NCBI GenBank assembly: GCA_943349945.1
Contig: CALQZS010000002.1
Coordinates: forward strand, 115,750 to 179,749
Reading direction: 5' to 3'
Length of the DNA stretch: 64,000 nt
Source: Candidatus Nomurabacteria bacterium
GTDB lineage: Bacteria; Patescibacteriota; Minisyncoccia; Phycocordibacterales; SBAW01
The translations under genes and the position numbers were made by a program. Shown here piece after piece: positions 2,232 through 57,910 of this stretch; positions within the stretch are counted from its first letter, which is position 1, and each line of letters starts with the position of its first letter. The notes beneath the pieces are model-generated. The model saw only the letters and a list, made by a program, of their open reading frames with translations, did not search any database and was not told the DNA's origin.

Positions 2232-2344
2232 ATAAAATTGTTTTTAGTGGTTAGGAAATAGTGGGAATGGTGGCCGTCGAGGGATAATCTTACCCTTTAG
2301 GGCCCACAAACGCAAGCCCAAAACTCACTCCAAATACAGGAAAC

Positions 2345-4045: not shown

Positions 4046-4049
4046 CCGA

Positions 4050-4331
4050 TTATAGCGTATCGCCCCCTCGTTTGCGGAGTTTGCCTACGATGACTACGCG
4101 CAGCACGGAGCCCACAACCGCCAAGGCGGTGAGCGGGAAATATATATAGTGCAGCCACCCGGGTGCGCCGTATGCCAAATCAAGCAAAAAACCAAGCAGT
4201 ATCGCCGTAACCCAGTGGCCAGAGACAGTCGCCAGCAACACACCAAAGACTGCCAACGGCCAAAATCCTGCCAAAAAGCCAGTCGCCGTGGTCAAAAACG
4301 ACACTAATATGACTGTTCTATTGCGAAACAT
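4050..4331 (-). CDS. mreD: Small polytopic membrane protein, probable MreD
   Basis: 93 aa, hydrophobic. Sits between mreC and pbp2, overlapping mreC by 14 nt. Confidence 0.45.
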   Translation of the reverse strand: MFRNRTVILVSFLTTATGFLAGFWPLAVFGVLLATVSGHWVTAILLGFLLDLAYGAPGWLHYIYFPLTALAVVGSVLRVVIVGKLRKRGGDTL

Positions 4332-13430: not shown

Positions 13431-14444
13431 TTATCTTTTTGCGATAACCGCTTTTTTGTATGTATCCAAATGCTCCAACGCAATACCCGTCCCGCGTGCC
13501 ACACAAAACAGTGGGTCTTCTGCTACCGCAGCTTTAACGCCAGTGCGGCGCAGCACCAACTCGGGGAAATGGCGGAGCATCGAGGTACCGCCGGTCATGA
13601 TGATGCCGCGGTCTATAATGTCGCTAGCCAGCTCGGGCGGCGTTTCTTGCAAGACGTCGCGTATCGCTTTGATTATCTCGCGCAGCTCTTTGCCCATGGC
13701 CTTAACTATGTCGTTTGTCTTGAGCTCGGCCGAGCGGGGCAAACCCGTAATAAAATCGCGGCCGCGCACGGTGGTCACCAACTCCTCTTCCACAGGCACC
13801 GCAGAGCCTACAGCAATTTTTACATTCTCTGCAGTTTTTTCTCCAATACCAAGGTTGTATGTTTTTTTAATATAGTCGGCTATTGCATGGTCGAGCTTGT
13901 CGCCGCCACATTTGACCGAGGTTGATGCAACAATGCCGCCCAAAGAAATCACCGCAACGTCTGCGGTACCGCCACCAATGTCTACCACCATGTTGCCTCG
14001 TGGCTCGTGTATAGGAATGCCGGCACCAATTGCCGCCAAGACTGACTCTTTGACCACGTATGCATTTTTTGCACCAGCGCGTATCGCAGCCTCCACCACC
14101 GCACGACGTTCGGTCGAGGTAACACCCGTGGGCACCGACACCATCACCTCCGGACGAAACAAACTAAACCGCCCCATCGCTTTGGATATAAAGTAGCGCA
14201 GCATCGCCTGGGTTACGCGATAGTCGGCGATGACTCCGTCTTTGAGCGGGCGGTAGGCAATAATCTCGCCCGGGGTGCGGCCTATCATCTCTTTTGCCTC
14301 GACCCCCACCGCCAAGATGCGCTTGTCGACTTCGGAAATGGCTACGACCGACGGCTCGTTAAGTACCACGCCCCGCCCCGGCACAAACACGAGCGTGTTT
14401 GCGGTGCCGAGGTCGATGCCAAGCTTGGGAGTAAAAAAAGCCAT
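13431..14444 (-). CDS. Second MreB-family actin homolog
   Basis: 337 aa. DLGTANTLVF, DIGGGTAD motifs. A paralog of mreB at 5066-6118. Confidence 0.8.
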   Translation of the reverse strand: MAFFTPKLGIDLGTANTLVFVPGRGVVLNEPSVVAISEVDKRILAVGVEAKEMIGRTPGEIIAYRPLKDGVIADYRVTQAMLRYFISKAMGRFSLFRPEVMVSVPTGVTSTERRAVVEAAIRAGAKNAYVVKESVLAAIGAGIPIHEPRGNMVVDIGGGTADVAVISLGGIVASTSVKCGGDKLDHAIADYIKKTYNLGIGEKTAENVKIAVGSAVPVEEELVTTVRGRDFITGLPRSAELKTNDIVKAMGKELREIIKAIRDVLQETPPELASDIIDRGIIMTGGTSMLRHFPELVLRRTGVKAAVAEDPLFCVARGTGIALEHLDTYKKAVIAKR

Positions 14445-24417: not shown

Positions 24418-24689
24418 GTGGATGTCTCCTTATGTGTGTGTTCTGTAGCCATATGCATACTAACACAAGTATATGTTTTTGTAAAGTTTTTGCTCCGGCG
24501 CCAAGATAGGACTCGGCTCCGCATAAAAACTTTATCGTCATAAAGTTTTTTGCTAGCCGCGCCTCGCTCCCACGTCTGCTGACGCGGGGCCCGCTCCGGC
24601 GTTCGAGTCCTGGACGGAAGTGTCCCACACTTCCTCGCCTGGGGCTTGTAACGCAAAAATCGCCCAAAGGCGATTTGTTGCTAACCAAG

Positions 24690-24991
24690 CTCCGGCGCCA
24701 GGACTCGAACCTGGAACCAACTCCTTACACGTGAATCCCCCATTGCTGCGGGCGTGGACTATATCATCATCCCAACTTACAGGAAGTTGTCGGATGCGAG
24801 GCGCTTCGCGCTGCAAATCGCAGAGCTACTCCCTTGCGGGATAGTCTCTACACCTTCCCCAACATAACGTCGGGACTTGGCTCGGGATTGCCCCAAAGGG
24901 GTTTCCCCGAATTCACCTCGTTTTTCAATTCAGATTCCTCTGAAAGGCTGCCTTTAGACAGGGAGCTGCTCTACCATTGAGCTACACCGGA
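24690..24991 (-). tRNA. tRNA-Asn(GUU), interrupted in the anticodon loop by a 230-nt group I intron
   Basis: Exons fold as UCCGGUG-UA-GCUC-AAUGGUA-GAGC-A-GCUCC-CUGU|UAA-GGAGU-UGGUU-CCAGG-UUCGAGU-CCUGG-CGCCGGA-G. UCC acceptor start and G73 fit Asn. Confidence 0.65.
24728..24957 (-). ncRNA. Group I self-splicing intron
   Basis: P7 with R element GUAGAGACUAUC and S element GAUAUAGUCC. GCCAAGUCC P-like element. U at -1 paired to an internal guide GCAG. Terminal omega-G before UAAGGAGU. Confidence 0.65.
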
Positions 24992-25065
24992 ATATATCGA
25001 ACATTCAATATTATACATGTGTTTTTATTAATAACAAACTTAACACCTTGTGTTATACTTTTTGT

Positions 25066-30996: not shown

Positions 30997-31197
30997 ATGG
31001 AAGAAGGAATTGTAGCCCGCGTCACTGACAAAGGCTTTGGTTTCATCAAGCGCGATGGTCAGGAAAAAGATCTCTTTTTTCACTCCAACGAGCTCGTGAA
31101 CATCGCATTCAACGACATCCGCGAAGGTGACAAAGTGACTTTTGAAGTTGCAGACAGTCCAAAAGGACCAAACGCAATCAAGGTCAGCAAAATCTAA
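30997..31197 (+). CDS. cspA: Cold-shock protein (CspA family)
   Basis: 66 aa. KGFGFI and FFHS RNP motifs. Long 5' UTR. Confidence 0.9.
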   Translation: MEEGIVARVTDKGFGFIKRDGQEKDLFFHSNELVNIAFNDIREGDKVTFEVADSPKGPNAIKVSKI

Positions 31198-31216: not shown

Positions 31217-31250
31217 ACACCCCCGGTAAAACGGAGGTGTTTTTTTATTT
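31217..31250. terminator. Bidirectional terminator
   Basis: cacccccggtaaaacggaggtg followed by TTTTTTTATTT. Lies between the convergent cspA and SET genes. Confidence 0.55.
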
Positions 31251-31673
31251 CTCAGGCTGGCACTTACTGCAACGACACCCTTTTGGCTTTATGTATTCGT
31301 CAAAAAACTCGGTGTCGTAGTCGTAGTTAAGCTCCTCGCCCTCTTTTATATTGCGCTTTGCTAAAATAAACACGCGCTCTTTGTGGATGTCTATCTCGCA
31401 GTTAGGGCGGCACGAGTGGTTTATATAGCGCGCCGTGTTGGAACGTGCGCCACCGTCTATGGTTTTGGTCTTGCTTACCTCAAACAAGTACTGACTGGTG
31501 ATGGTCTCGTCCTCGCCCTTTTCGAGCGTACGGCCCACATACTCGATAACGCACGCGCCTTTGGGTATTGGCTCGCCCGCAAACAGCCCCAACCCCGCCT
31601 TTGAGCGCTTGACCTTAAGCACAAAACCGCGTGGCTCGAACTTTTTCCATTTCTTTTTTTGCATAGTATTCAA
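31245..31673 (-). CDS. SET-domain protein (lysine methyltransferase fold)
   Basis: NHSCRPNC and ELNYDYD motifs, with the post-SET cysteines CRCSKC. Confidence 0.75.
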   Translation of the reverse strand: MNTMQKKKWKKFEPRGFVLKVKRSKAGLGLFAGEPIPKGACVIEYVGRTLEKGEDETITSQYLFEVSKTKTIDGGARSNTARYINHSCRPNCEIDIHKERVFILAKRNIKEGEELNYDYDTEFFDEYIKPKGCRCSKCQPEK

Positions 31674-31970: not shown

Positions 31971-32444
31971 CTAGCGCGTATACCACTCTCTGGTACGAAC
32001 CAGCACATACACCCCACCAACCACCATCCCGGCAATAGCAGCACTGGCTGCAATATCAACCACATGATGGACATCTGCCAATACACGCGACACGCCGACA
32101 CACAACGCAAGCGCCCATAGCAGCAGCCCAACAGGGCGGCTGTATACCAACACCACAGACGCCAAGGCGGTGGCCAACAAGGTATGGTCTGAGGGGAAGC
32201 CGTTGTCCGCCACATGCGCCACCAAAGGCGTGCTGTTTTCTACCACAAACGGTCGTGCGTTGTAATAGAGAAGCGACACGGTCTTTGCAACGCCATAGGC
32301 AAGCGGCAAGGCCAATGCCGCCAAAGCGAACAAGCGTCGCCGCACCACAGAGGGTGCATACAGTACATACAAAAGAAACACCAAGACCGAGAGCGCAATA
32401 AGATACTTGGCACCAAAAATAACCAGCATATCTGCAACGGGCAT
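31971..32444 (-). CDS. PAP2-family membrane phosphatase (undecaprenyl-diphosphatase / PgpB-like)
   Basis: KX6RP (YNARPF), PSDH, SRVLADVHHVVD motifs. Confidence 0.7.
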   Translation of the reverse strand: MPVADMLVIFGAKYLIALSVLVFLLYVLYAPSVVRRRLFALAALALPLAYGVAKTVSLLYYNARPFVVENSTPLVAHVADNGFPSDHTLLATALASVVLVYSRPVGLLLWALALCVGVSRVLADVHHVVDIAASAAIAGMVVGGVYVLVRTREWYTR

Positions 32445-32515: not shown

Positions 32516-32869
32516 ATGGAGCACCTCGCACACTACGAAAAAGAAGAACGACCGTGGGGCACTTTTGAGCGCTTTACCCAAAACGAAGCGACGACAGTCA
32601 AGATAATTACCGTGCACGAAGGCGAGGCACTTAGCCTGCAGACACACGCACACCGCGACGAATTTTGGCGCATACTCTCGGGCACGGGTACAGCAACACG
32701 AGGCACCGACACATTGCAGATGCAGGCAGGAGACACACTACACTGCCCGCGCGCCACACCGCACCGCATGGAGGGCGGCAAAGGCGGCATAGTGTTTTTA
32801 GAAATTGCATTCGGGGACTTTGACGAAGGAGATATCGTCCGGTTGGAAGACCGCTACAATAGAGCATGA
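32516..32869 (+). CDS. Cupin resembling the mannose-6-phosphate isomerase type-II C-terminal domain
   Basis: ERPWGTFE…ITVHEGEALSLQTHAHRDEFWRIL. Start at the internal Met. Confidence 0.6.
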   Translation: MEHLAHYEKEERPWGTFERFTQNEATTVKIITVHEGEALSLQTHAHRDEFWRILSGTGTATRGTDTLQMQAGDTLHCPRATPHRMEGGKGGIVFLEIAFGDFDEGDIVRLEDRYNRA

Positions 32870-33954
32870 CGTTTGTGTACATAGGGTTTTTGGTATTTTT
32901 ACTTATAGCTTTTGTAGCGCTGTACCTGCGCGGCCGCACCCGCGCCCCGCTTGCCCTAGCGCGCGTAGCACAAAACCCCATACTCGAGCCCATTGCCGAA
33001 CATGCCTGGGAGTCTGAAGGGGTGTTTAACCCTGCTGCTATATATGAAGGCGGGCGAGTGCATTTGTTGTATCGTGCGCTCGGCTCGGACGGCATCTCGC
33101 GCATAGGCTATGCGTCCAGCAAAGACGGCCTACACTTTGACGAGCGGCTTCCCTACCCTATTTATTCGCCAACGCGCGACTTTGGCGTACCCACCAAACC
33201 AAAAGGCCCTCTTTCGTATGACACTGTGGTGTACCCGTCGGGCGGCGGGTGGGGCGGGTCGGAAGACCCGCGGACAGTGCGCATAGACGACCATGTGTAC
33301 ATGTCGTTTGTAGCGTTTGACGGGTGGGGGTTTGTACGGATGGCGTTGACCTCGATTTTGCACCGCAATTTGCTCGAAAAAAATTGGGACTGGAAGAAGC
33401 CCGCGTTCCTCTCGCCTCCGGGCGAAATACAAAAAAATTGGCTGCTCTTTCCTAAAAAAATAGGCGGTAAGTACGCCATACTCCACAGTATTTCGCCCGA
33501 GGTACGCATCGCCTACGTCGATACTTTAGAAGAATTTGACGGTACCAAGTTTATCGAAGGCTCGTACCGCAGTGGCGGCCGCCCCGAACACTGGGACAAG
33601 TCGGTACGCGGCGCCGGCGCCCCACCCATAGAGACCCCCGAAGGTTGGTTGCTCTTTTATCATGCTATGGACCCGGGCGACCCTAGCGTGGGCTACAAAG
33701 TGGGCGCGCTGCTGCTCGACCTCGACGACCCTAGTGTGGTGCGTTATCGCTCGAAGGCCCCCGTGCTTGAGCCCACACAGTGGTATGAAAACGACTGGAA
33801 GCCCGGCGTGGTGTATGTATCGGGCGCGGTGGTTGTGGGTGGTGACTTGTTGGTCTACTACGGAGGAGGAGACAAACGCATCGCCGCCGCAAAAACAAAT
33901 CTTGCTGCTTTTGTGCGGGCACTTACCCGCGGCGAGCACGCAGTGCTGACGTAG
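32866..33954 (+). CDS. GH130-family (DUF377) beta-mannoside phosphorylase-like protein with N-terminal TM anchor
   Basis: QNPILEP…WE…GVFNPAA…LLYRA and GSEDPR motifs. N-terminal hydrophobic helix. Confidence 0.7.
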   Translation: MTFVYIGFLVFLLIAFVALYLRGRTRAPLALARVAQNPILEPIAEHAWESEGVFNPAAIYEGGRVHLLYRALGSDGISRIGYASSKDGLHFDERLPYPIYSPTRDFGVPTKPKGPLSYDTVVYPSGGGWGGSEDPRTVRIDDHVYMSFVAFDGWGFVRMALTSILHRNLLEKNWDWKKPAFLSPPGEIQKNWLLFPKKIGGKYAILHSISPEVRIAYVDTLEEFDGTKFIEGSYRSGGRPEHWDKSVRGAGAPPIETPEGWLLFYHAMDPGDPSVGYKVGALLLDLDDPSVVRYRSKAPVLEPTQWYENDWKPGVVYVSGAVVVGGDLLVYYGGGDKRIAAAKTNLAAFVRALTRGEHAVLT

Positions 33955-34007
33955 CGCACCGACAAAACGCATACTCGAAAAAATAGTGGGGTATACTAAA
34001 TACAAAC

Positions 34008-35933
34008 ATGTACGTTATACGACGCTCACCACACAACCCGCTTATCTCCCCCATCGCCGACAAGCAGTGGGAGTCTCGGGGCACCTTTAACCCAAGCCCT
34101 ATCAAAAAAGGTAACATCACGCACCTGCTCTATCGCGCACTAAGCCGCCCCGACACACTGTTGGCGCCGTCGGGCATATCCACCATAGGCAAAGCGCTGT
34201 CGCTCGACGGCAAGCACTTTCAAAACCGACGACAATTTATTGTCCCAGAAGAGCCGTGGGAGAAATACGGCTGCGAAGACCCGCGCGTGACCTTTTTTGA
34301 GGGACAATACTTCATTTTTTATACTGCACTGGGTGGCATGCCTTTTGGCCCAGGGAATATTAAAGTTGCATGCGCCATATCCAAAGACCTAGAGACGATA
34401 CAGTCCAAACACCTAGTAACACCCTTTAACGCCAAGGCTATGGCGCTCTTTCCTGACCGAATAAACGGCAAGATAACGGTGATTTTGACCGCACACACCG
34501 ACCAACCGCCTGCGCGCATCGCCATAGCCCAGTGCGACCGTATAGAAGAGCTGTGGGATTTGTCGTTTTGGGAAAAATGGCACGCCGAGATGGATGAAAA
34601 CGTCATCAACCCGCTGCGGTTCGAGAACGACCATGTCGAAGTAGGCTCGGCACCCATCAAAACAAAAGACGGCTGGCTGCTGTTTTATTCCTACATCCAC
34701 AATTACTTTGGTGGCGGCGAACGCGTGTTTGGTGTAGAAGCCTTGCTGCTCGACTTGCAGGACCCACGGCAAATTATAGGACGCACCAAAGGCCCCATGC
34801 TGGTGCCCGAAGAAATTTACGAAAAGTACGGCATCGTACCCAACATCGTCTTCCCTACTGGAGCCTTGCTCGACAAAAACGGCTGTGTCGACGTGTACTA
34901 TGGTGCTGCAGACACGGTGTGCGCTAAAGCATCGCTCCACCTACCCGACCTGTTGAGCGCTATGATACCCGAACGCCGCGTCGACTTGGCTATACGCGCA
35001 AAAGAAAACCCAATACTTAAACCCATAGAAAGCCACCCTTGGGAGCGGCGTGCCGTCTTTAACCCCGCAGTACTCGACCTGGGCGGCATCGTACACATCC
35101 TGTACCGCGCCATGGGAGACGACAACACCTCTGTTATTGGTTATGCGGCATCCAAGAACGGCGTAAAAATAACCGAGCGCCTACCGGAGCCTATATACGT
35201 CCCCAGGGAAGACTTTGAGCTTAAAAAAGGTTCTCCGGACGGCAACTCTGGCTGCGAAGACCCACGCATCACCGTACTAGACGACATGGTGTATATGACC
35301 TACACCGCCTACGACGGCGTACATGCAACGCGTGTTGCCCTAACCTCTATGTCTTGCGAAGACTTTTTGGCACGCCGGTGGGACAAGTGGAGCAAGCCTG
35401 TACTCACCACACCCGAAGACATTAACGACAAAGACACTGCACTGATGCCCGAGAAAATAGGCGGCCAGTACATGTTGCTACACCGCATCGACCCGCAACT
35501 GTGCGCAGACTTCCTTGATACGCTCGACTTTAAAAAGAGCCGCCTTACGCGCTGTATCGAGATAATGGGCCCGCGCCCCGGCATGTGGGATTCCAAAAAG
35601 ATAGGTATTGCAGGGCCACCTATTAAAACAGACAAGGGCTGGCTGCTTATATACCACGGCGTGTCTAAAACCGGCACCTACCGCCTGGGAGCGGTACTGC
35701 TCGACCTTGCAAACCCTTCTATCGTACTGTCGCGCTCGGTGGATACCATTTTTGAACCTCTAGAGGAGTACGAGCGCATAGGCCTGGTGCATAACGCCGT
35801 TTTTTCTTGTGGTACGGTACTGCGCGACGACACACTCTATATATATTACGGTGGTGCAGATACGGTTATTGGCGTAGCCAAGGTATCACTCAAAAAATTG
35901 CTCAAAATCTTGCTACCGGATACACTGCAGTAA
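34008..35933 (+). CDS. Tandem double GH130-domain protein (641 aa)
   Basis: Two repeats of NP(L/I)…P(I)…WE…FNP…LYRA plus GCEDPR(V/I) motifs. Confidence 0.7.
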   Translation: MYVIRRSPHNPLISPIADKQWESRGTFNPSPIKKGNITHLLYRALSRPDTLLAPSGISTIGKALSLDGKHFQNRRQFIVPEEPWEKYGCEDPRVTFFEGQYFIFYTALGGMPFGPGNIKVACAISKDLETIQSKHLVTPFNAKAMALFPDRINGKITVILTAHTDQPPARIAIAQCDRIEELWDLSFWEKWHAEMDENVINPLRFENDHVEVGSAPIKTKDGWLLFYSYIHNYFGGGERVFGVEALLLDLQDPRQIIGRTKGPMLVPEEIYEKYGIVPNIVFPTGALLDKNGCVDVYYGAADTVCAKASLHLPDLLSAMIPERRVDLAIRAKENPILKPIESHPWERRAVFNPAVLDLGGIVHILYRAMGDDNTSVIGYAASKNGVKITERLPEPIYVPREDFELKKGSPDGNSGCEDPRITVLDDMVYMTYTAYDGVHATRVALTSMSCEDFLARRWDKWSKPVLTTPEDINDKDTALMPEKIGGQYMLLHRIDPQLCADFLDTLDFKKSRLTRCIEIMGPRPGMWDSKKIGIAGPPIKTDKGWLLIYHGVSKTGTYRLGAVLLDLANPSIVLSRSVDTIFEPLEEYERIGLVHNAVFSCGTVLRDDTLYIYYGGADTVIGVAKVSLKKLLKILLPDTLQ

Positions 35934-35941
35934 CTACCTCC

Positions 35942-36712
35942 ATGGCAATCCAACCAAAACTAATGGTATTTGACCTCGACGGCACCCTGGCCGAGAGCAA
36001 ACAGCGGATGTCCGCACAAATGGGAGACCTGCTTTCTGAGCTATTGCAAAAAATGCCTGTGGCCATTATGTCTGGCGGCAGTTGGAAGCAGTTTGAAAAG
36101 CAGTTTTTACCTGCACTCCCCACCGAAGAGAATCTTGATCGTTTGTACATATTTCCCGACAATGCGGCACAGTGTTTTGTGCACAAAAACGGCGCATGGC
36201 ATCCACAGTACGATAATGCATTTACTACTACGGAGCGGGACCATATCTTGCAAGCACTCGACGAAGCCTTAGCCGAAGTAGGCTTGGCCGACCCAGGCGC
36301 TAAAGTGTGGGGTAACCGTATAGAAGACCGCGGGGCAGAGATAACCTTTTCTGGTTTGGGACAAGATGCTCCACCAGAGGAAAAGCGCAATTGGGACCCC
36401 GACGGAAGCAAAAAACGCGCCTTGCGCGACGCGGTGGCTAAACGCCTACCGGAGTTTGCAGTGGGGGCAAACGGCTCTACATCTGTAGATATTACCCGCA
36501 AGGGCATCACCAAAGCCTACGGCATCAAGCGCCTCACCGAGATGACCCAGATATCGGCCGAGCAGATGCTGTACGTGGGCGACGCCCTGGACGAAGGCGG
36601 AAATGACGCGGTGGTTATCGAAACGGGCGTACCTACACACGCTGTTTTTGCCCCACGCGAAACAGAGGCCTTAATTGAAACCATCCTCCACTCCCACCAC
36701 ACAGCGCTGTAG
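35942..36712 (+). CDS. HAD-IIB hydrolase, eukaryote-type phosphomannomutase-like
   Basis: FDLDGTL motif I, MSGGS motif II, VGDALDEGGND motif IV. Start at the internal Met. Confidence 0.65.
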   Translation: MAIQPKLMVFDLDGTLAESKQRMSAQMGDLLSELLQKMPVAIMSGGSWKQFEKQFLPALPTEENLDRLYIFPDNAAQCFVHKNGAWHPQYDNAFTTTERDHILQALDEALAEVGLADPGAKVWGNRIEDRGAEITFSGLGQDAPPEEKRNWDPDGSKKRALRDAVAKRLPEFAVGANGSTSVDITRKGITKAYGIKRLTEMTQISAEQMLYVGDALDEGGNDAVVIETGVPTHAVFAPRETEALIETILHSHHTAL

Positions 36713-36925: not shown

Positions 36926-39889
36926 ATGGCAATAACCCAAAAAATAAAGAAGCGGAACGGAGAAATAGTTGACTTTGTGCCGACCAATATCACCTTGGCA
37001 GTACAAAAGGCATTTGCCGCAACTTTGGGCGATGCGCATGAAGCAGATGCTGTGGACATCACACGGGTAGTGGTGGATTCGATAGACATGAAGTTTGGCA
37101 CTACGGCCTTTATCCCTACTGTCGAAGACATCCAGGACTTGGTAGAAAACGCACTGATGGAACGCGGCTACTTTGGCGTTGCAAAATCGTACATCATCTA
37201 CCGCTACGAGCACGACAAAATCCGCCAAGAGAAAAAACTCGAAGTGGCAGAAAAAATCACTGAAAACGCTCTTTTGATAACTAAACGCAACGGCTCTAGA
37301 GAAGCCTTTAGCGAGAGCAAGCTCACCCGCACACTGCTGCGCGCTGCAGAAGGGCTAGAGCGCGTCATTGACGTACCTTCAATTATTGGCCGCGTGCGCC
37401 AAGAAATGTACGACAGCATCAAAACAAAAGACATCCATGAGGTGCTTATTATGGTGGTGCGCTCTATGATCGAGCGCGACCCAGCGCACTCGAGTGTTGC
37501 AGCACGATTGTTGCTACAGTCGCTCTACCGCGACGTATTGGGCGAGATAGACTACACCAAATTGGAAGAGGCTCATAAAGAAGCTTTTGTCCGCACAATT
37601 AAACGCGGCGTCGAGATAGGCCAGTTTGACCCACAGATGCTCGAGTTTGACCTTGCTCGCCTTGCCGACACTTTAGTGGTCGAACGTGACCGCGACTTTA
37701 AATACTTGGGGCTCCAAACACTCCAAGCAAACTACCTCTCCAAAGAGCACGGCAGCCGCAAGCTTTTGGAGACTCCGCAGATATTCTGGATGCGCGTTGC
37801 TATGGGCTGTGCCTTGGCAGAAAAGACCCCTATGGAGCGCAACGCACAGGCGGTGGAGTTTTACGAGGTGATGTCTGCAATGTACTACACCCCAAGCTCC
37901 CCAACGCTCTATCACGCCGGGCTGATGAAGCCACAACTGTCTTCATGCTTCCTCAGCACCGTACCCGACGACTTGCATGCGATTTTTAAACAATACTCCG
38001 ACGGTGCACAGCTGCTTAAGTACGCAGGCGGTCTTGGCACCGACTGGACCCCAGTGCGCGCAACCGGCTCGCTAGTTAAGACAACCGGCGTCGAGAGCCA
38101 GGGCGTTATCCCCTTCCTTAAAATCGCCAACGACGTAACCATATCCATTAACCGCTCGGGCCGTCGTCGTGGCGCAGCCGCTGTGTACTTGGAGTATTGG
38201 CACGCCGACATCGAGGACTTTATCGAGCTGCGCAAAAACACCGGCGACGAGCGCCGCCGCGCACACGACCTCAACACGGCTGCCTGGATACCTGACCTGT
38301 TTATGAAGCGCTTAGCCGAAAACGGCTACTGGACGCTCTTTAGCCCGTCCGACGTGCCCGACCTGCACGACCTCTTTGGCCGTAAGTTTGAAGAGGCCTA
38401 CGTCCGCTACGAACAGTTGGCCGAAGAAGGTAAGATGCCGATGTTTAAAAAAATCCGCGCGGCAGACTTGTGGCGCAAGCACTTGACCATGCTCTTTGAA
38501 ACAGGGCACCCATGGATCACCTGGAAAGACCCTAGCAACATCCGATCTCCGCAAGACCATGTGGGCGTGGTGCACTCGAGCAACCTCTGCACCGAAATTA
38601 CTCTCAACACTTCTGCAAACGAGACAGCCGTGTGTAACCTCGGCAGCATCAACATGGCAAAGTTTGTGCAGGCAAGCGGCGCCTTTGACCGCGACTTGGT
38701 GGCCCGCATTGTGCCCGTTGCCATGCGCATGCTCGACAACGTTATCGACGTGAACTTCTACCCTACTGAAGACACGCGCCGCTCTAACATGCGCCACCGC
38801 CCAGTGGGACTGGGGCTCCGTGGGCTCCAAGACGCACTCTACAAAGCAAACATTACCTTTGACTCCGACGAGGCAGTGCGGTTTTCTGACGAAAGTATGG
38901 AGACAATTGCCTACCACACCATCCTGGCATCCGCATTGTTGGCAAAAGAGCGCGGCACGTACGAGACATACAAAGGCTCCAAGTGGGACCGTGGCATTTT
39001 GCCTCAAGACACACTGACCTTGCTCGAGCAAGAGCGCGGCGTGCGCATTGACGTGCCTCGGCACGAGACGCTCAACTGGCAGTTGGTGCGCGAGGCAGTG
39101 CGGCAATGGGGCATGCGCAACTCCAACACCATGGCAAACGCGCCAACCGCATCCACCGCAAACATCGCCGGCTGCTACCCTACTATTGAACCTATCTACA
39201 AAAACCTCTACGTGAAGTCCAACATGGCGGGCGACTTTATGATCGTCAACGAGTACCTGGTAGAGGACTTGAAAAAACTCGGCCTTTGGAGTATGGACAT
39301 GCTCGAGAAAATTAAGTTCTACGACGGCAGCGTGCAGCAGATAGACGAGATACCGCCTGCACTACGCGCAAAATACAAAGAGGCGTTCGAGATAGACCCG
39401 CAGTGGCTCGTTAAAGCAGCCGCATACCGTGGCCGCTGGATAGACCAGTCACAATCATTAAACATCTTCTACAGCGGTACCTCTGGCAAAGCGCTCTCCG
39501 AGATTTACCAGTACGCATGGGCACTGGGGCTCAAGACCACCTACTACCTACGTTCGATGGGCGCATCCCGCGTCGAAAAAGCGACCGTTAACATGCAGAA
39601 ATTTGGCGGCACATCCAAAACTGACGCGAGCGTAAGCAGCACCCCCGGCAGCGTACCGTCTACAATTATGGTTGAAGAGACAGTCACCGTAACTACCCTC
39701 AACACAGTGGCCACGCCGTCGCCCTTGATGATGAGTGCCACAGGGTATGTGTCTATGAGCACCGCACAAAAATCACAAACAGCAGAGGTGGTTGCACTCC
39801 AAGAGCCACGTCACGCAGAGGTTGCCTTTGACCTCCCCAAAAACAAGATAGAGGTGGTTGGCGAAGCGTGCGAGAGTTGCAGTGCGTAA
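36926..39889 (+). CDS. nrdA: Class I ribonucleotide reductase alpha subunit
   Basis: 987 aa. ATP-cone N-terminus, SSNLCTEI active-site motif, C-terminal CESC redox tail. Confidence 0.85.
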   Translation: MAITQKIKKRNGEIVDFVPTNITLAVQKAFAATLGDAHEADAVDITRVVVDSIDMKFGTTAFIPTVEDIQDLVENALMERGYFGVAKSYIIYRYEHDKIRQEKKLEVAEKITENALLITKRNGSREAFSESKLTRTLLRAAEGLERVIDVPSIIGRVRQEMYDSIKTKDIHEVLIMVVRSMIERDPAHSSVAARLLLQSLYRDVLGEIDYTKLEEAHKEAFVRTIKRGVEIGQFDPQMLEFDLARLADTLVVERDRDFKYLGLQTLQANYLSKEHGSRKLLETPQIFWMRVAMGCALAEKTPMERNAQAVEFYEVMSAMYYTPSSPTLYHAGLMKPQLSSCFLSTVPDDLHAIFKQYSDGAQLLKYAGGLGTDWTPVRATGSLVKTTGVESQGVIPFLKIANDVTISINRSGRRRGAAAVYLEYWHADIEDFIELRKNTGDERRRAHDLNTAAWIPDLFMKRLAENGYWTLFSPSDVPDLHDLFGRKFEEAYVRYEQLAEEGKMPMFKKIRAADLWRKHLTMLFETGHPWITWKDPSNIRSPQDHVGVVHSSNLCTEITLNTSANETAVCNLGSINMAKFVQASGAFDRDLVARIVPVAMRMLDNVIDVNFYPTEDTRRSNMRHRPVGLGLRGLQDALYKANITFDSDEAVRFSDESMETIAYHTILASALLAKERGTYETYKGSKWDRGILPQDTLTLLEQERGVRIDVPRHETLNWQLVREAVRQWGMRNSNTMANAPTASTANIAGCYPTIEPIYKNLYVKSNMAGDFMIVNEYLVEDLKKLGLWSMDMLEKIKFYDGSVQQIDEIPPALRAKYKEAFEIDPQWLVKAAAYRGRWIDQSQSLNIFYSGTSGKALSEIYQYAWALGLKTTYYLRSMGASRVEKATVNMQKFGGTSKTDASVSSTPGSVPSTIMVEETVTVTTLNTVATPSPLMMSATGYVSMSTAQKSQTAEVVALQEPRHAEVAFDLPKNKIEVVGEACESCSA

Positions 39890-40786: not shown

Positions 40787-41779
40787 ATGGGAATCATCAA
40801 CGGCTCATCAACGACAGATCCAAACAAAATCCTCCCTATGAAGTACCCATGGGCGCGTACGCACTACAAAAAAGGCGTGGCCAACAACTGGGTGCCAGAA
40901 GAGGTGTCTATGCAGCAAGATGTCGAGCTGTGGAAGAAAGCTGGCGCACTGTCCGAAGATGAGCGTCGCATGATCTTGTGGAATCTTGGGTTTTTCTCGA
41001 CAGCAGAGTCGCTGACCGCCAACAACTTGGTGTTGGCCATTTACCGCCACATCACCAACCCCGAGGCGCGGCAGTACATACTTCGCCAGTCGTACGAAGA
41101 GGCGGTGCACACCGACACCTTCATCTACTGCTGCGACACGCTGGGCCTCAACCCCGACGAGATCTACAACATGTACCAGACCATCCCCTCTATCAAAGAA
41201 AAGGATGACTTTGTTGTAGAGATGACAAAGTCGGTGTTTGACCCAAGCTTTACGACCGAAGGCACCGAGAATATCCAAAAATTTGTGCACGACCTGGTGG
41301 GCTACTACGTAATTATGGAGGGCATCTTCTTTTACGCGGGCTTTGCCATGATGTTGTCGATGTTGCGCAAAAACCGCATGGTGGGTATTGGCGAGCAATT
41401 CCAGTTTATCCTCCGCGACGAGTCGGTACACTTGGCCTTTGGCGCAGACCTTATAAACACTATTGTGCAAGAAAATCCGCAAATCTGGACTCCTGAATTT
41501 AAAAAGACCCTTGTCGAGAACATTGTCCGCGGTACCGAGCTAGAGAAAAAATATGCAGACGATGCGTTGCCACGAGGCATCTTGGGGCTGACCCCCGGCT
41601 CTGTAAAGCAGTATGTCGAGCACGTTGCCGACCGCCGCCTAGAGCGCATCGGGCTGGAGCGCCAGTACCACAAAGACAATCCCTTCCCTTGGATGTCGGA
41701 GATTATGGATGTGCCAAAAGAGAAAAACTTCTTCGAAACCCGCGTGACGGAATATAAGACTGGAGAACTCGACTGGTAA
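40787..41779 (+). CDS. nrdB: Class I ribonucleotide reductase beta subunit
   Basis: 330 aa. Ferritin-like diiron ligand pattern (E…EAVH…, E…H) and a tyrosyl-radical region. Confidence 0.85.
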   Translation: MGIINGSSTTDPNKILPMKYPWARTHYKKGVANNWVPEEVSMQQDVELWKKAGALSEDERRMILWNLGFFSTAESLTANNLVLAIYRHITNPEARQYILRQSYEEAVHTDTFIYCCDTLGLNPDEIYNMYQTIPSIKEKDDFVVEMTKSVFDPSFTTEGTENIQKFVHDLVGYYVIMEGIFFYAGFAMMLSMLRKNRMVGIGEQFQFILRDESVHLAFGADLINTIVQENPQIWTPEFKKTLVENIVRGTELEKKYADDALPRGILGLTPGSVKQYVEHVADRRLERIGLERQYHKDNPFPWMSEIMDVPKEKNFFETRVTEYKTGELDW

Positions 41780-50672: not shown

Positions 50673-53600
50673 TTAGATAACTTCGGACTCTACTACCTCG
50701 GGTGCCGCAGCATATTTATTGACCAGGCGCTCTTTAGGAGAACCTTTGAAGCCAGTACCTGCTGGAATAAGACGACCGATGATAACGTTTTCTTTAAGAC
50801 CTTCGAGGCGGTCTACACTACCGTACATTGCTGCTTTGATAAGCATACGAGTGGTGTTTTGGAAGGACGCTGCAGAGAGGAAGCTCTGACGAGAAAGCGA
50901 GACGTCCAAAATTCCCATCACCAATGGCTCGCTCTTTGCAGGCTCGCCACCATCTTGTACCGCTTTTTCGCTTGCATCGCGCAAGTCGCTTTCGCTGGTT
51001 ACATCGCCGACAGAGTACTCGGTGCCACCTTGGTCGGTGACGCGCACGCGCGAGAACATCTGGCGCACAATGGTCTCCAAGTGTTTTGCCGAGATACTTG
51101 CACCCTGGAGTTCGTAGATTTTTACCACCTCCGAGATCAAGTACTCTTGTGTACGCTCTTTGCCCGCGTACTTAAAGAGGTCGGACAGGTCGGCTGAACC
51201 GTCGGTCAAGAGTTGCCCCTTGGTGATGCGCTCCCCAACTTTGACAAGCGGGATGCGGCGGAAGTTTACATCGTACTCAATAGTTTCTTTTTTGCCTTTA
51301 CCACGGAATTCGAGGTCTGGAGTTATAACCAACACCTTTTCTTTGCCTTCGTCGCGGATCTCGAGCACCTCGCCCGAGACAGTTGCCACAATGGCAGGGT
51401 TGCGTGGCATGCGGCGCTCGAAGATTTCTTCAACACGTGGCAAACCTTGGGTGATGTCGCCACCTACAGAGGCTGCACCGCCGGCGTGGAAGGTACGCAT
51501 AGTGAGCTGGGTTCCTGGCTCGCCGATCGCCTGTGCGGCCACAGTACCCACAGCCTCGCCGAGTGCCACTGGTTTGGTGGTACCGAGGTCTGCACCATAA
51601 CAGCGGGCACAGATACCACGGCCTGCACGGCAGCCAATAGGAGAGCGTACATAGACAGACGCGACACCCATCTCTTCAATATGCTTGGCGTCTGCTCCCG
51701 TCACAAAGTGGCCTTTTTTGTAGATAACCTTACCTTCGGCTTCTACATCGCCTGCCAAGTAACGGCCAGTGATGTTTTGTGCCAAGAAGGTGCCGATACC
51801 CGACGCACTTTCGCGCTTAATAGTGAGGCCTTCTTTAGTGTCGCAATCATCGTGGGCAATAACCACGTCCTGCGCAACATCAAAGAGTCGGCGTGTCAGG
51901 TACCCTGCTTTTGCAGTGTTGAGCGCGGTGTCCGACAGACCTTTACGCGAACCGTGTGTAGTGATGAAGTACTCCAGCGGAGTCAAACCTTCTTTCATAG
52001 ACTTGGTAATTGGGAACTCAATTGCCTCGCCCGTTGGAGATGCGATGAGGCCTTTCATACCGGCCATCTGCGTTACTTGCGCCACCGAACCGCGGGCGCC
52101 CGAGCGCAACATGTCAGACACCGAGCCGTTGTCCGGCAGGGTCGCTGGCATCAACTTCTCTACCTCAGACTTGGCAGCATGCCAGACTTCGATGTTCATA
52201 CGGTAACGCTCTTCTTCCGACAACAAGCCGTCTTGCCAGTGTTTGACCACCTGTGCAGATTTTGCTTCTGCGGCTTCGACGATGTCGTTCTTCTCTTTTG
52301 GTACGCGGATGTCGTCGAGCGACCAAGTGATACCCGACTGGGTAACGTAGCGGAAGCCGAAGTTCTTGATACGGTCCAAGATCTCTGGGATTTTCTCTAG
52401 GCCGTAGCGTGCAATAAGGTCGTCTATCAACTTGGACAGCGCCTTCTTGTCGATACTTGCGTTAATGAATGGATAGTCACTTGGGAAGACTGTGTTGAAG
52501 AGCAGTCGGCCGACAGTAGTTTCGAAGATCTGACCACCAAAGGCGGCATACTTCTCTTTTTCTGACGGCATGACTTTTATCTTTGCTTGGAAGCCCACAT
52601 GACCGTAGTCGTATGCAAGGATGGCGCTGTTTGGATTTGGGAATGCCATACCCTCGCCCTTTGCACCCACCACCTCTTTGGTCATCCAGTAGGTGCCGAG
52701 CAAGATGTCGAGCAACTTGGTCGCAACCACAGGTTCTGAGTTACCAGGTTTGAGGATGTTTTTGGTTGCGGACATAATCTCGCGTGCCTCGGTTTGAGCC
52801 TCGGGAGACAACGGCACGTGCACCGCCATTTGGTCGCCGTCGAAGTCTGCGTTAAACGCTGGACATACAAGCGGGTGGAGCTGGATAGCGTTACCCTCGA
52901 TCAAGATAGGCTGGAAAGCTTGGATACCCAGACGGTGCAAGGTTGGTGCGCGGTTAAGCAACACGTACTTGTCGCGGATAACATCTTCGAGTATCGCCCA
53001 CACCTCTGGTACTCCTTCGTCTATAAGACGACCAGCGCCACGAATGTTGTAGGCAAGCTCTTTTTCGAGCAATTTGCCGATAACGAATGGGCGGAAGAGT
53101 TCCAGCGCCATGTGTTTTGGCAAACCACATTGATTAAGGCGAAGTTCAGGACCCACCACGATAACCGAGCGGCCCGAGTAGTCGACGCGCTTACCAAGCA
53201 AGTTCTGACGGAAGAGACCGTGTTTGCCCTTCAAGTTATCAGAGAGCGATTTGAGCGGACGTGTGCGAGCCTGGGTCGTAGCCGAAAACGCTGCACCACC
53301 GTGGCGTATAGAGTTGTCGACAAGTGCGTCGATTGCCTCCTGCAAGATGCGCTTCTCGTTGCGCAAGATAACGTCTGGCGCGTGGATTTCTATCAGTTTT
53401 TTGAGACGGTTGTTGCGGTTTATCACGCGGCGGTAGAGGTCGTTTACATCCGAAGTTGCATGACGGCCGCCGTCGAGCGCAACCATAGGGCGTAGACCCG
53501 GTGGGATAACAGGAATGCGGGTTAGGAACATCCACTCTGGGCGAACGTTTGCCCGGATCATACCGCGCAAAATAGAGAGACGCTTGCCAAGTTTTTCGCG

Positions 53601-56600
53601 CTCAGCGGCACCTGCCTTCAAAAGTGCAGTCTCGGTATTTTCTGCCATCTCTTTGAGGTTGAGCTTTTTGCACAAGTCGTACATTGCCTCGGCGCCAATA
53701 CCCGCCTCGAACATTGCACCGTACTTGATTACATAACGGTGGTATTTTGGCTCGTCAAGCACAGAGCCGACAAAGATAGACTCGATGTCGCGCTTTGCCT
53801 CGAGGAAGAGTTCTTTCATTTTGTCCTTAGACTTTTCGTCTTGAAGGTTTTTGAGTTTTTGTTTGTATTCGCTCTCAAGTTCGCCTACGATGCGCTCCTT
53901 TTCTGCTTTGTGCACCTGCGTCACTATGTAGCCTGCGAAGTAGACTACCTTTTCGAGGTCGCCACCGGAGATGCCAAGCACCATAGAGAGGCGCGACGGA
54001 ATAGCGCGAAGGAACCATACGTGCGCTACCGGCACTGCCAAGTCGACATGGCCCATGCGCTCGCGACGCACAATTGCACGAGTGATTTCGACGCCACATT
54101 TTTCACAGACAATACCTTTGTAGCGGATGCCGCGGTATTTGCCACAGTAACATTCGTAGTCGCGCTCTGGCCCGAAGATCTTTTCGTCAAAGAGTGAGTT
54201 TTTCTCTGGGCGCTGGGTACGGTAGTTGATGGTTTCTGGCTTGGTAACCTCGCCGTGCGACCATTCAAGAATTTTTTCAGGAGACGCTGGGCGGATGCGG
54301 ACAGCGTCAAAGTCAGACACCTCAGACCCAGGACCTTTGCGCACGCCCATAGGCTGGCCGCCGCGCATAAGCTCTACGTCGAGTGCCAAACCGCGAAGGG
54401 TGTGCAAGAGAACGTTAAACGACGCTGGTGCGTAGTGGTGGTTGATACGCTCGCCACGGACAATAGAGTCGAATGCAGCAGAGCGGCCCATGATGTCGTC
54501 GGACTTGATGGTGAGCATCTCGCGAAGGGTGTAGGCAGCACCATAGCCCAGGAGCGCCCACACTTCCATTTCTCCAAAACGCTGACCACCACCTTGCGCC
54601 TTACCACCAAGCGGCTGCTGGGTAATAAGCGAGTAGGGTCCAATAGAGCGCATGTGGATTTTATCTTCCACCATGTGGTGCAGCTTGAGGATGTACATGT
54701 AGCCAACGGAGATATCCTGCTCGAACTGCTCGCCGGTGCGGCCGTCGAAGAGCTTCATCTTGCCGTTTTCGTTGAAGCCTGCTTTTTTGAGCTCGCCGCG
54801 GATTTCTTCGTCAGTTGCTCCTGCAAATGGAGGACAAATTGCTTGGTAGTTGAGGCTGTTTGCCGCAAGCCCCAAGTGGAGCTCGAGGATTTGTCCTAGG
54901 TTCATACGGCTTGGCACACCAAGTGGGGTCAGAATCACGTCCACTGGGCGACCATCTTCCATGTATGGCATGTCTTCCTCGGGCAAGATGCGCGAGATAA
55001 CACCTTTGTTACCGTGGCGGCCTGCAAGTTTGTCGCCCACAGACACAGTGCGGAGCTGTGCTATTTCGATATGAATGCGCTTGATGATACCGCTTTCGAG
55101 CTGGTGCCCTGCTTCGCGGGAAAATACCTTAACGCCAATGATGCGGCCACGCTTGCCGTTTTCCATCCGGAGAGACGAGTCTTTTACATCGCGCGCTTTG
55201 TCGCCAAAGATACTGCGGAGCAAACGTTCCTCTGGGGTAAGTTGTGTTTCGCCTTTTGGTGTGATTTTACCTACCAAGATGTCGCCTGGGCGGACTTCCG
55301 AGCCAGTGCGGATAACGCCGTCCTCGTCGAGGTTGCGGAGCTTTGCTTCCGACACGTTAGGGATGTCGTGAGTGGTCTCTTCTGGCCCAAGCTTGGTGTC
55401 ACGGACGTTGCAGACAAACTCTTCGATATGGATAGAGGCGAATTTAGAATTTTTGACGAGACGCTCAGAGATGATGATTGCGTCTTCGTAGTTTGCACCC
55501 GACCAGCACATAAACGCCACGAGGGCGTTCTGGCCAAGCGCCAACTGACCTTGGTCTGAGGTAGAAGTATCGGCAAGCAAGTCGCCTTTTTTGACCTTGG
55601 TACCCACAGACACTGCTGGGCGGCCGTGCAGCGCGGTGAAGCCGTTGGTGCGTACGAAGTTAACAATTGGGTACTCTACTTCTTTACCCTTTTCGTTTTT
55701 GACCTTGATGCGCTTACCGTCTGCCTGAGTTACCACACCTGCCTCTTTGGCAATAATCAAACGGCCAGTGTCGCGCGCAGCGCGTTCTTCCATGCCGGTT
55801 GCCACAAGCGGAGCTTCAGGGATGATGCAGGGAGTAGCCTGCTTTTGCATGTTCGAACCCATGAGTGCGCGGTTTGCGTCGTCGTGCTCGAGGAATGGGA
55901 TCATCGAGGTTGCGATAGAAAATGGCTGCGCTGGGTCAACGTCGATGTAGTTTACGTCTTTGCGGGCAACACGGGTTGGTGAGCCGTTGAGGCGCACCTC
56001 CACCATGTCCTCAACAATCTTGCCGTCGTCTGCAACTTTTGTTGCACCGTGTGCAATTATTTGTTTTTCTTCTTCGGCTGCGTTTAGGTACACTACCTCG
56101 CCTGTAACATGGCCGTTCGCCACCTTTACATACGGAGTTTCGATCATGCCGAACTCATTGAGCCGCGCAAAAGTCGAGAGACGCAAAATAAGGCCGATGT
56201 TGGGGCCTTCTGGGGTGTGGATTGGGCACAGACGTCCGTAGTGCGATGGGTGCACGTCGCGTACCTCAAAACCGGCACGCTCGCGGGTCAAACCTCCTGG
56301 ACCCAAGGCCGAGAGTGTACGCAAGTGCTCGAGCTCGGTCAGCGCGTTTTCTTGCTGCATGAACTGCGAAAGCTGGTTGGTGGTGAAAAATTCTTTGATG
56401 CGTGCTTGCAGCGGGCGCGGGTTTACGAACTGCTGCGGCATAGTTGCATCCGTGTCGATAGTCGACATGCGGTCCTGGATATTGCGCTTCATGTGGGTCA
56501 AACCAACACGCAAGCGCTGCTGGAGCATCTCGCCCACATAGCGTACGCGGCGGGACCCAAGGTGGTCGATGTTGTCTTCCATCGCCTCTGGGTCATGCTC

Positions 56601-57506: not shown

Positions 57507-57910
57507 AATGAGTTTTGGATGAAGGCCGTTAATAATAAGTTGCTTGTAATCGCACGTTACTAAAAAATCTCGGGAGCTGCTTTGCCATAAACCAACTATG
57601 GTCAAGAGAGCTATCCACAGAGCCAAAACGCGAAAAAAGCGAGCGCATATACGCTCCCCCGCTTGGCCTCTGCGCCTCGCTTTAGGTGATTATTGCTAAC
57701 CACTATTCAATTGTGTCGAAACTTCAGCCCATAACTCATTCAATTTGAAGGTTTTAGCCTCCAAATGCCCCGCTTTGTTTCATTTACTATTGTACTCCCC
57801 TGGTTTGGGGTGTCAAGCGAATTTCCCCAGCCATGCCTAGTTTTAGAGTTCTGCACACCTTTTACTATATAAAACTGGACAAAAACTGACATTTACTGCA
57901 TATTATTTTC

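Follow-up and report, generated by a model that had tools for sequence, protein, structure and literature searches.

We analysed a 64,000-nucleotide stretch of DNA from Candidatus Nomurabacteria bacterium (assembly GCA_943349945.1, contig CALQZS010000002.1, positions 115,750-179,749), referred to here as the window, and in it a cluster of four genes predicted to act on mannose phosphates and mannosides. The genes encode a stand-alone cupin of the type II phosphomannose isomerase (PMI) kind, a membrane-tethered GH130 protein (A), a 641-aa protein made of two GH130 domains (D1 and D2), and a HAD-IIB hexose-phosphate mutase (Table 1). An earlier note on this DNA (the original prediction) had called four co-directional genes here and named them as a PMI cupin, two GH130 proteins and a phosphomannomutase (PMM)-like HAD enzyme. 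The open reading frame (ORF) listing of the stretch contained all four on the + strand at the positions given there, and family profiles agreed with each identity.

The genes are tightly packed. The ATG of A overlaps the stop codon of the cupin gene by 4 bases. The fourth ORF was listed from 35807, and an ATG at 35942 (MAIQPKLMVFDLDGTL) lies 8 bases past the stop of the tandem gene. This ATG is almost certainly the real start, and the resulting length fits orthologues of 250-256 aa. The best protein matches came from Kaiserbacteria, Adlerbacteria and Paceibacterota, and the genes surrounding the cluster are housekeeping genes. No other mannose genes were found among the 39 window ORFs scanned against Pfam, and promoter and terminator scans gave nothing above shuffled expectation.

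Table 1. Features of the GH130 locus, in positions of the window.
Feature	Positions	Strand	Basis
Type II PMI cupin, stand-alone, 117 aa	32516-32869	+	PF01050, TIGR01479 C-terminal region
A, membrane-tethered GH130 domain protein, 362 aa	32866-33954	+	PF04041, AlphaFold2
Predicted N-terminal transmembrane anchor of A, residues 2-25	32869-32940	+	predicted helix, hydropathy, charge
D1, N-terminal GH130 domain (residues 1-326 of the 641-aa protein)	34008-34985	+	PF04041, alignment
D2, C-terminal GH130 domain (residues 327-641 of the 641-aa protein)	34986-35933	+	PF04041, alignment, Foldseek
HAD-IIB hexose-phosphate mutase, 256 aa	35942-36712	+	PF03332, TIGR01484, 4BND match
PAP2 lipid-phosphate phosphatase, divergent, 157 aa (neighbour only)	31971-32444	-	PF01569, 2.1e-14

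The cupin matched PF01050, the C-terminal cupin of type II PMI, over profile positions 8-116 of 116 (75.5 bits, cut-off 23.6) and also matched TIGR01479 in its C-terminal region, 355-467. Two metal-site motifs could be read from the sequence, SLQxHxHRxE (SLQTHAHRDEFW) and PHR. We predict that this protein interconverts fructose-6-P and mannose-6-P.

The mutase scored 59.9 bits with TIGR01484 (HAD-IIB, cut-off 41.8) and 32.6 bits with PF03332 (eukaryotic PMM, cut-off 22.4). Its closest solved relative is the alpha-phosphoglucomutase PgmH of Lactococcus lactis (PDB 4BND; E = 1e-40, 34% identity, residues 5-249), followed by human PMM2 (E = 1.5e-11). It shares the HAD-IIB fold with PgmH and with eukaryotic PMM1 and PMM2, together with the DxDGT nucleophile motif (FDLDGTL) and the GDxxxxGGND motif (GDALDEGGND). 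However, it is only 34% identical to PgmH, and the operon context suggests a preference for mannose over glucose. On this basis the fourth gene product is a predicted mannose-6-P to mannose-1-P mutase. We considered whether it might instead be a sugar-phosphate phosphatase of the MPGP, SPP or Cof type, which would have hinted at a two-step compatible-solute pathway. We rejected this reading, since the phosphatase models scored far below their cut-offs and the best matches were mutases (4BND, PMM1/2) that aligned over the full length and carry the GDxxxxGGND motif.

Active sites of the three GH130 domains

All three domains were assigned to PF04041 (GH130, cut-off 26) and to no other family, A with 120.6 bits (E = 9e-35) and the 641-aa protein with 317.4 bits (E = 1.1e-94) in two stretches. 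An AlphaFold2 model of the 641-aa protein (mean pLDDT 91.9, pTM 0.84) contains two beta-propellers. The two stretches and the two propellers bear out the earlier claim of two complete GH130 domains in one polypeptide, and the second domain begins at RAKENPILKPIESHPWERRAVFNP, at about residue 330 as had been proposed. The best 35 Foldseek matches were all GH130 structures, and D2 superposed on 9FJ8, 9GPH and 7FIP with TM-scores of 0.88-0.92 and a root-mean-square deviation of 1.7-2.9 A.

We aligned the domains to solved GH130 enzymes and took the functional residues from the tables in PMC7660257 and PMC4599007; the references Teth514_1788, Teth514_1789, Lin0857, TM1225, UhgbMP and 4BND were partial sequences rebuilt from HMMER alignments. 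In GH130 phosphorylases phosphate is the nucleophile and is held by conserved basic residues, which the hydrolases of the family have lost while gaining glutamates (PMC4599007). We found that A, D1 and D2 all keep the Asn and Asp of the -1 site, the Arg of the +1 site and the proton-donor Asp of the EDPR motif, so that the copies are not inactive-looking throughout. This catalytic Asp (D104 of UhgbMP, D142 of BT3780) is D91 in D1, D418 in D2 and D134 in A and was invariant in 121 orthologues of the tandem protein and 101 of A. A Glu beside the catalytic Asp and a Lys at the R150 position mark beta-1,2 specificity (PMC7660257, PMC4599007), and the pair was present in all sequences examined (E90/K143 in D1, E417/K475 in D2, E133/K190 in A).

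The phosphate pocket gave a different result for each domain. The complete Arg/His/Arg set was found only in D2 (R493, H550 and R559, the last being the counterpart of the second Arg of the beta-1,2 enzymes), and the phosphorylase Arg/His pair (R168/H231 of UhgbMP) is present in D2 and in neither A nor D1. The three GH130 domains are thus not equivalent: only D2 carries a full phosphorylase signature, and A and D1 fit neither the known phosphorylase nor the classical hydrolase signature.

In a distance tree (simple neighbour-joining, without support values) the A, D1 and D2 types formed three separate clades, all of them grouping with Teth514_1788 and Teth514_1789 (GH130_6), and Lin0857 (GH130_4) fell outside. 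D1 branched within or beside the GH130_6-like group and not with GH130_3 (72.5 versus 178 bits). Identity to Teth514_1788 was 46.5% for D2, 45.8% for A and 36.2% for D1, and D2 was 47.1% identical to Teth514_1789. On the NCBIfam model for beta-1,2-mannobiose phosphorylase (NF052550) D2 scored 275.7, A 209.4 and D1 178.2 bits, all below the equivalog cut-off of 450; the whole 641-aa protein reached 449.2 bits only by summing its two domains.

The Thermoanaerobacter X-514 pair Teth514_1788/1789 (PMC4264767; PDB 9FJ8, 7FIP) is thus the closest known system, at 36-47% identity and TM-scores of about 0.9, and it shares the E/K signature, the short L2 loop, adjacent paralogues with divided roles and the lack of signal peptides. 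However, both Teth514 enzymes are full phosphorylases that lie beside an ABC importer, a GH5 enzyme, ManC and a GT4 gene. In the window operon, by comparison, two phosphate pockets are remodelled, two domains are fused and one is anchored; the partners are a PMI and a HAD mutase without a transporter, and no domain reaches the equivalog score.

D2 keeps every expected residue (N352, R367, E417, D418, K475, R493, H550, R559 and D618) and has a short L2 loop like that of Teth514_1788. All tested beta-1,2 GH130 phosphorylases also have weak GDP-mannose-dependent transferase activity, and a rule has been proposed by which enzymes whose L2 loop is short or points outward are dual phosphorylase/transferases when they make four phosphate contacts, whereas a short loop with three contacts gives a 'GT with no or very weak GP' (GT, glycosyltransferase; GP, glycoside phosphorylase; PMC12814180). 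We predict that D2 is a phosphorylase/transferase because it has four phosphate contacts and a short L2 loop.

A was claimed to carry an N-terminal transmembrane helix, and the evidence agreed. In the AlphaFold2 model (pLDDT 87.1, pTM 0.87) residues 2-25 form one predicted helix (block pLDDT about 94) followed by a confident propeller. Across 99 orthologues the N-terminal extension had a median 19-residue Kyte-Doolittle hydropathy of 2.85 and a median uncharged span of 28 residues, with a net charge of -0.8 ahead of the hydrophobic span and +2.4 behind it. There is no positive n-region, and RGRTR stands just after the helix. The segment is therefore predicted to be a reverse signal-anchor, and by the positive-inside rule the catalytic domain would face the cytoplasm. 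A signal peptide was considered for A and rejected on the same features: the missing positive n-region, the long uncharged span and the positive charge behind it.

The -1/+1 sugar-site residues of A are kept (N55, R70, E133, D134, K190 and D336), and an insertion of 25-30 residues with an invariant SGGGWGG precedes the EDPR motif. In its phosphate pocket S208 occupies the Arg168 position, H266 is kept and K278 replaces the second Arg, and the L2 loop is short. The Arg168 position held S, A, L, T or V in 101 orthologues and N in two further distant ones and was never basic; the His was kept, and Lys stood at the second-Arg position in 94 of the 101. Removal of this Arg lowered phosphorylase activity 16-fold in the R202A variant of Uhgb_MS (PMC12814180), and the strict, GDP-Man-dependent GT108 transferases MTP1 and MTP2 of Leishmania lack the phosphate-pocket Arg (PMC10913872). 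We predict that A is transferase-like because it combines a short L2 loop with three phosphate contacts (PMC12814180) and, like MTP1 and MTP2, lacks the Arg.

In D1 the sugar-site residues are invariant (N28, R43, E90, D91, K143 and D302), and all three basic phosphate ligands are gone, replaced by T164, S228 and G242. Two further invariant residues, E211 and E244, stand where canonical enzymes have glycine. These five residues were the same in 121 of 121 close orthologues, and the pattern recurred in distant and in single-domain D1-type proteins; one distant D1 (L075) has Asn at the position of the catalytic Asp. Mean pairwise identity among 37 genomes was 61.8% for D1 and 61.1% for D2, and D1 is not decaying. 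It has no signal sequence.

The GH130_3 beta-1,2-mannosidases BT3780 and BACOVA_03624 (PMC4599007) resemble D1 in having lost the basic phosphate ligands and gained two glutamates while keeping the -1 site, the Asp and the beta-1,2 Lys. However, those hydrolases, compared here by their published description, are secreted and have Glu in place of the basic residues themselves, whereas D1 is predicted to be cytoplasmic and has Thr/Ser at the basic columns and Glu at neighbouring ones (E211, E244). A purely hydrolytic D1 by direct analogy with BT3780 is conceivable; the counting of residues between landmarks gave an ambiguous result.

Distribution, neighbours and domain variants

Of the scored candidates, more than 6,600 matched the tandem protein at E <= 1e-10, and the best 120 were all about 640 aa long and 75-97% identical. 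A relative was found in at least 585 of the GTDB species genomes, and those that are named all belong to Patescibacteria. We compared 80 species loci with about 8 kb visible on each side. A lies directly upstream of D1-D2 in 77 of them (median gap 7 bases), in 65 the cupin is no more than 4 kb from the tandem gene, and in 47 the mutase, upstream or downstream, is no more than 4.5 kb from the GH130 genes. Three gene orders were common: cupin-A-D1D2, cupin-A-D1D2-mutase and mutase-cupin-A-D1D2. The cluster is thus a core operon of Paceibacteria and not a peculiarity of one genome.

The sequences of the operon are also slow to change. Between the window and an Adlerbacteria genome D1-D2 was 78.6% identical, the alpha subunit of ribonucleotide reductase (RNR) 77.1%, and HisRS and TruB 61-62%. 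Mean pairwise identity among the 37 genomes was 51.4% for A, 52.2% for the cupin and 45.0% for the mutase. In the Paceibacteria loci examined, few non-informational gene sets are as conserved as this operon, and its product or substrate is therefore probably central to the physiology of Paceibacteria.

The original prediction had called the tandem and anchored forms atypical. This holds among characterised GH130 enzymes, where both are rare: more than 99% of GH130 sequences are mono-modular and the 2018 CAZy set held four GH130-GH130 sequences (PMC7660257). In Patescibacteria it does not hold, since both forms are the rule there. The bimodular CAZy sequences share the architecture, and both of their modules fall in one network cluster; however, they are uncharacterised, and PMC7660257 is silent on unequal sites, operon context and abundance in Patescibacteria. 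Our literature searches found no paper that ties GH130 enzymes or mannoside phosphorylases to Patescibacteria, save for one that briefly mentions a Microgenomates genome with two GH130 genes. The operon apparently has not been described so far; its components come from known families and their combination appears new. The new element is the set of one canonical and two re-tooled GH130 domains, one tethered to the membrane and two fused, together with a PMI and a HAD mutase.

Clustering of all ORFs from 83 loci found no further conserved operon member (transporter, ManC or glycosyltransferase), and no transporter, binding protein or secreted glycosidase in the conserved neighbourhood. The other recurrent neighbours were housekeeping genes only (HisRS, fmt, def and RNR). 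In the window a class I RNR alpha gene with two ATP-cone matches (36926-39889, +) and a beta gene (40787-41779, +) lie directly downstream of the operon, a synteny common to the Adlerbacteria genome and to loci L001, L005, L007, L013, L020, L022 and L025. Upstream are genes for a cold-shock protein (30997-31197, +), a SET-domain protein (31245-31673, -) and the PAP2 protein of Table 1; SET and/or PAP2 homologues occur on the same side in L007, L013, L015, L016, L019, L023, L061, L083 and L088. PAP2, PAP2_C or BacA genes were found near the GH130 genes in a minority of loci (L001, L007, L013, L016, L088 and L090).

The conserved neighbourhood bears on whether the operon serves salvage alone. 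In that case imported beta-1,2-mannooligosaccharides would be split in the cytoplasm by three domains of differing chain-length or substrate preference, and the mutase and PMI would pass mannose-1-P on to glycolysis at no cost in ATP, an attractive option for fermenters that have no hexokinase. D2 as a canonical phosphorylase fits salvage and its closest relatives are assigned to it, Teth514_1788 and Teth514_1789 likewise being a tandem pair divided by chain length. PMI and PMM are what catabolism to fructose-6-P needs, and GH130 phosphorylases have been described as intracellular catabolic enzymes (PMC7660257). However, the Thermoanaerobacter salvage cluster has an ABC transporter and a GH5 enzyme (PMC4264767), and neither a transporter nor an extracellular glycosidase was conserved with the module in the 80 loci. 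Two of the three domains have lost phosphate ligands, so that the energetic gain of phosphorolysis would be wasted. For a salvage operon to be conserved like RNR in at least 585 species of groundwater, soil and lakes, an external beta-1,2-mannan would have to be ubiquitous; none is known from such habitats, and the listed sources are only trypanosomatids, yeast and a few lipopolysaccharides. Relatives of the GH130 proteins are, in addition, fused or adjacent to ManC and glycan-synthesis genes, as described below. Taken together, we regard pure salvage as the main rival reading, possible but doubtful.

A search of representatives, one per 50%-identity cluster, gave 4,674 relatives, and we sorted the best 150 of these and nine long homologues of A with domain-specific profiles. 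We found an A-D1-D2 triple fusion of 971 aa without a membrane helix (P0241), an A-D2 fusion in which the helix is retained, a protein with the reverse order D2-D1, and single D1 and single D2 proteins. The fusions A-D1-D2, A-D2 and D2-D1 show that the three domains work jointly and in the same compartment. More than 100 proteins of about 620 aa carry an N-terminal domain, X, in place of the helix of A; X is a degenerate GH130-like propeller without an EDPR motif (hhalign probability 97.6-99.1%). Examples of the X type are P0214, P0209 and P0225 and those in L038, L046, L080, L082 and L084 (7001-8872). In L046 and L038 an Arg has returned to the R168 position of the A-type domain, and Asn takes the place of its His. 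The L084 contig, which carries an X-A and D1-D2 pair, also has a DnaB helicase gene split by an intein with a LAGLIDADG endonuclease (2034-4076).

These variants bear on whether D2 is the only catalytic domain, with D1 and X as pseudo-enzymes that mimic the second subunit of a GH130 dimer and A as a weak second phosphorylase. GH130 enzymes are dimeric or hexameric and have loop L2 at the subunit interface, X in the roughly 620-aa proteins lacks the EDPR motif, and the pTM of 0.84 suggests a fixed arrangement of D1 and D2, all of which would fit. However, in 121 of 121 orthologues D1 has both the catalytic Asp and all -1/+1 sugar ligands, and its rate of evolution is as low as that of D2, which is not expected of a scaffold, and single-domain D1-type genes carry the same signature. 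We therefore consider it very improbable that D2 is the only catalytic domain.

Several variants lie among genes for glycan synthesis. The gene of the triple fusion overlaps the stop of a ManC-type mannose-1-phosphate guanylyltransferase gene (L087, 5947-9916) within a polysaccharide-synthesis cluster that includes a UDP-sugar dehydrogenase, an epimerase and a processive GT2; the L087 contig, with PBP1 and alpha-2-macroglobulin genes, does not look patescibacterial. One X-A and D1-D2 pair is flanked by GtrA, small GT2 and PMT_2-type (GT-C) genes, one D2-D1 and X-A pair adjoins a processive GT2, and one X-A and single D1 pair adjoins BacA and a small GT2. In a Paceibacteria locus (L031, 10020-10889, -) a fusion protein has a cytidylyltransferase-like domain at the N-terminus of the PMI cupin (PF01467 and PF01050). 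Judged by its domains this protein may combine nucleotidyltransferase and isomerase functions as bifunctional ManC does, with another fold in the nucleotidyltransferase part. The link of the GH130 set to activated-mannose and glycan-synthesis genes is thus recurrent, in a minority of loci.

Such neighbours raise the question of one-way synthesis, in which A would synthesise either a small mannosyl solute or a beta-mannoside of the membrane or envelope (a lipoglycan, or a glycan started at the inner membrane face), and D1-D2 would control chain length or edit the product. The GH94 phosphorylase domain of the cyclic beta-1,2-glucan synthase Cgs has such a chain-length or editing role and would be the model for D1-D2. 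The membrane anchor of A with its cytoplasmic catalytic domain agrees with one-way synthesis, as do the PAP2/BacA, small GT2, GtrA, PMT_2 (GT-C) and DedA-type neighbours of some lineages and the triple fusion inside a polysaccharide cluster with ManC. However, glycan-type neighbours occur in a minority of loci and are common in genomes of the candidate phyla radiation anyway, the anchor is dispensable in many lineages, and the module has no conserved flippase or exporter. The +1 site has the residues of enzymes that act on Man-beta-1,2-Man, and nothing indicates a non-mannose acceptor. One-way synthesis therefore appears unlikely. The suggestion that the product might be a compatible solute found no specific support.

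A proposed endogenous beta-1,2-mannan cycle

The reading that we favour, with a probability of about 0.45, is that the operon makes and recycles an endogenous mannogen-like beta-1,2-mannan or oligomannoside. The module would be self-contained and cytoplasmic and would join glycolysis to beta-1,2-linked mannosides. Fructose-6-P and mannose-6-P would be interconverted by the cupin, mannose-6-P and mannose-1-P by the HAD mutase, and mannose-1-P and a beta-1,2-mannoside plus inorganic phosphate (Pi) by D2. The three GH130 domains may be ancient paralogues of the Teth514_1788/1789 type among which labour has been divided. D2 would be the phosphorylase and probably, like all tested enzymes of its kind, weakly active as a transferase too. 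A, at the cytoplasmic face of the membrane, would most likely work as a transferase, starting or lengthening the chain with mannose from an activated alpha-mannosyl donor and catalysing hardly any phosphorolysis or none. GDP-mannose is a candidate donor, to which the contact rule (PMC12814180) and the ManC gene beside the triple fusion point indirectly. D1, with its phosphate pocket filled by two glutamates, could not use phosphate; it may trim or debranch the chain in the manner of a hydrolase, or bind mannosides as a partner of D2. Turnover of the mannan, as a bacterial counterpart of Leishmania mannogen, would then supply hexose phosphate without ATP cost. The sequences directly show the gene identities, the residue signatures, the conservation, the synteny and the fusions, and from these we infer which way the flux runs, which donor A uses, what chemistry D1 performs and that a polymer exists.

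We favour a make-and-recycle function because no importer or secreted glycosidase is conserved with the operon, because the operon evolves very slowly across species from many habitats, and because of the cytoplasmic membrane tether and the associations with ManC and glycan genes. The original prediction had proposed that such a cluster could make rather than degrade a beta-mannoside. The lack of a conserved transporter or glycosidase, the Arg-less A, the cytoplasmic tether and the ManC and glycan neighbours fit this part of it, which is not proven. Its weakest part was the idea of a phosphorylase simply run in reverse, since cellular Pi normally drives phosphorolysis and the operon is without a GDP-mannose pyrophosphorylase.

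A precedent for paralogues that make and turn over one polymer exists in Leishmania, where tandem GT108 paralogues, strict transferases without the Arg and dual enzymes with it, jointly make and turn over mannogen (PMC10913872). The GT108 enzymes MTP1-7 (Sernee et al. 2019, cited in PMC10913872; PDB 6Q4X, 6Q50) are similar to the window domains in the five-bladed propeller, the mechanism and the split of paralogues by the phosphate-pocket Arg. However, the window proteins are GH130 proteins whose similarity to GT108 is at the level of the fold only (Foldseek E = 5e-11 to 6e-9, 14-18% identity). GT108 structures ranked below all GH130 structures in Foldseek, and by sequence the window proteins are not members of GT108. 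The Arg is replaced by Ser in A, not by His. The product of the Leishmania system is a cytoplasmic beta-1,2-mannan reserve, whereas the window operon is known from its genes alone.

Several points weigh against an endogenous cycle. Phosphorylases normally run degradatively in cells, and catabolism needs PMI and PMM just as much. A GDP-mannose pyrophosphorylase is missing from the Paceibacteria operon, and the links to envelope-glycan genes were seen only in a minority of loci. The anchor of A is not universal: many lineages have the degenerate GH130-like domain instead, and the triple fusion has no anchor. Where E211 and E244 lie with respect to the phosphate site was read from the alignment and the strand register. 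In GT108 the Arg position alone does not decide between transferase and phosphorylase activity (PMC10913872), and our literature searches found no report of a beta-1,2-mannan in any patescibacterium.

A broader form of the proposal is that Paceibacteria and other bacteria with A and D1-D2 synthesise and continually turn over an endogenous beta-1,2-mannan, as an ATP-free hexose-phosphate reserve or a membrane-associated glycan, with A as transferase, D2 as phosphorylase and D1 as a hydrolase-like enzyme. All three chemistries would then have arisen in a single GH130 lineage and stayed together in one operon. We advance this version tentatively and think it rather unlikely to hold in all its parts. 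If true, D1 would represent a new GH130 subfamily with its own catalytic-base arrangement, and the system would be the first bacterial counterpart of Leishmania mannogen and would explain hexose-phosphate buffering without hexokinase or spare ATP. Patescibacteria make up a large share of bacterial diversity, and their carbon storage and envelope glycans are essentially unknown. The switch between GH130 chemistries is an actively studied question (PMC12814180, PMC10913872), and the pockets of A (Ser/His/Lys) and D1 (Thr/Ser/Gly and two Glu) are natural experiments on switching between phosphorylase, transferase and hydrolase. A and D1 may also yield catalysts for beta-mannoside synthesis.

Other features of the window

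The window contains three further features of note. An Rfam group I intron match lies at 24736-25022 (-), with 67 bits against a gathering score of 50. With its intron option ARAGORN placed a tRNA-Thr(UGU) with a 230-nt intron at 24689-24991 (-), boundaries that disagree with the Rfam match, and splicing trials of this predicted tRNA gave no clean tRNA.

Genes for two MreB paralogues (5066-6118 and 13431-14444), MreC (4318-5085) and a PBP2-type transpeptidase (2345-4045), all on the - strand, form a set found here in an ultra-small-genome bacterium. Finally, a single ORF of 2317 aa at 50673-57626 (-) encodes the beta and beta' subunits of RNA polymerase fused into one polypeptide, with Rpb2 domains at residues 59-1087 and Rpb1 domains at 1105-2200.

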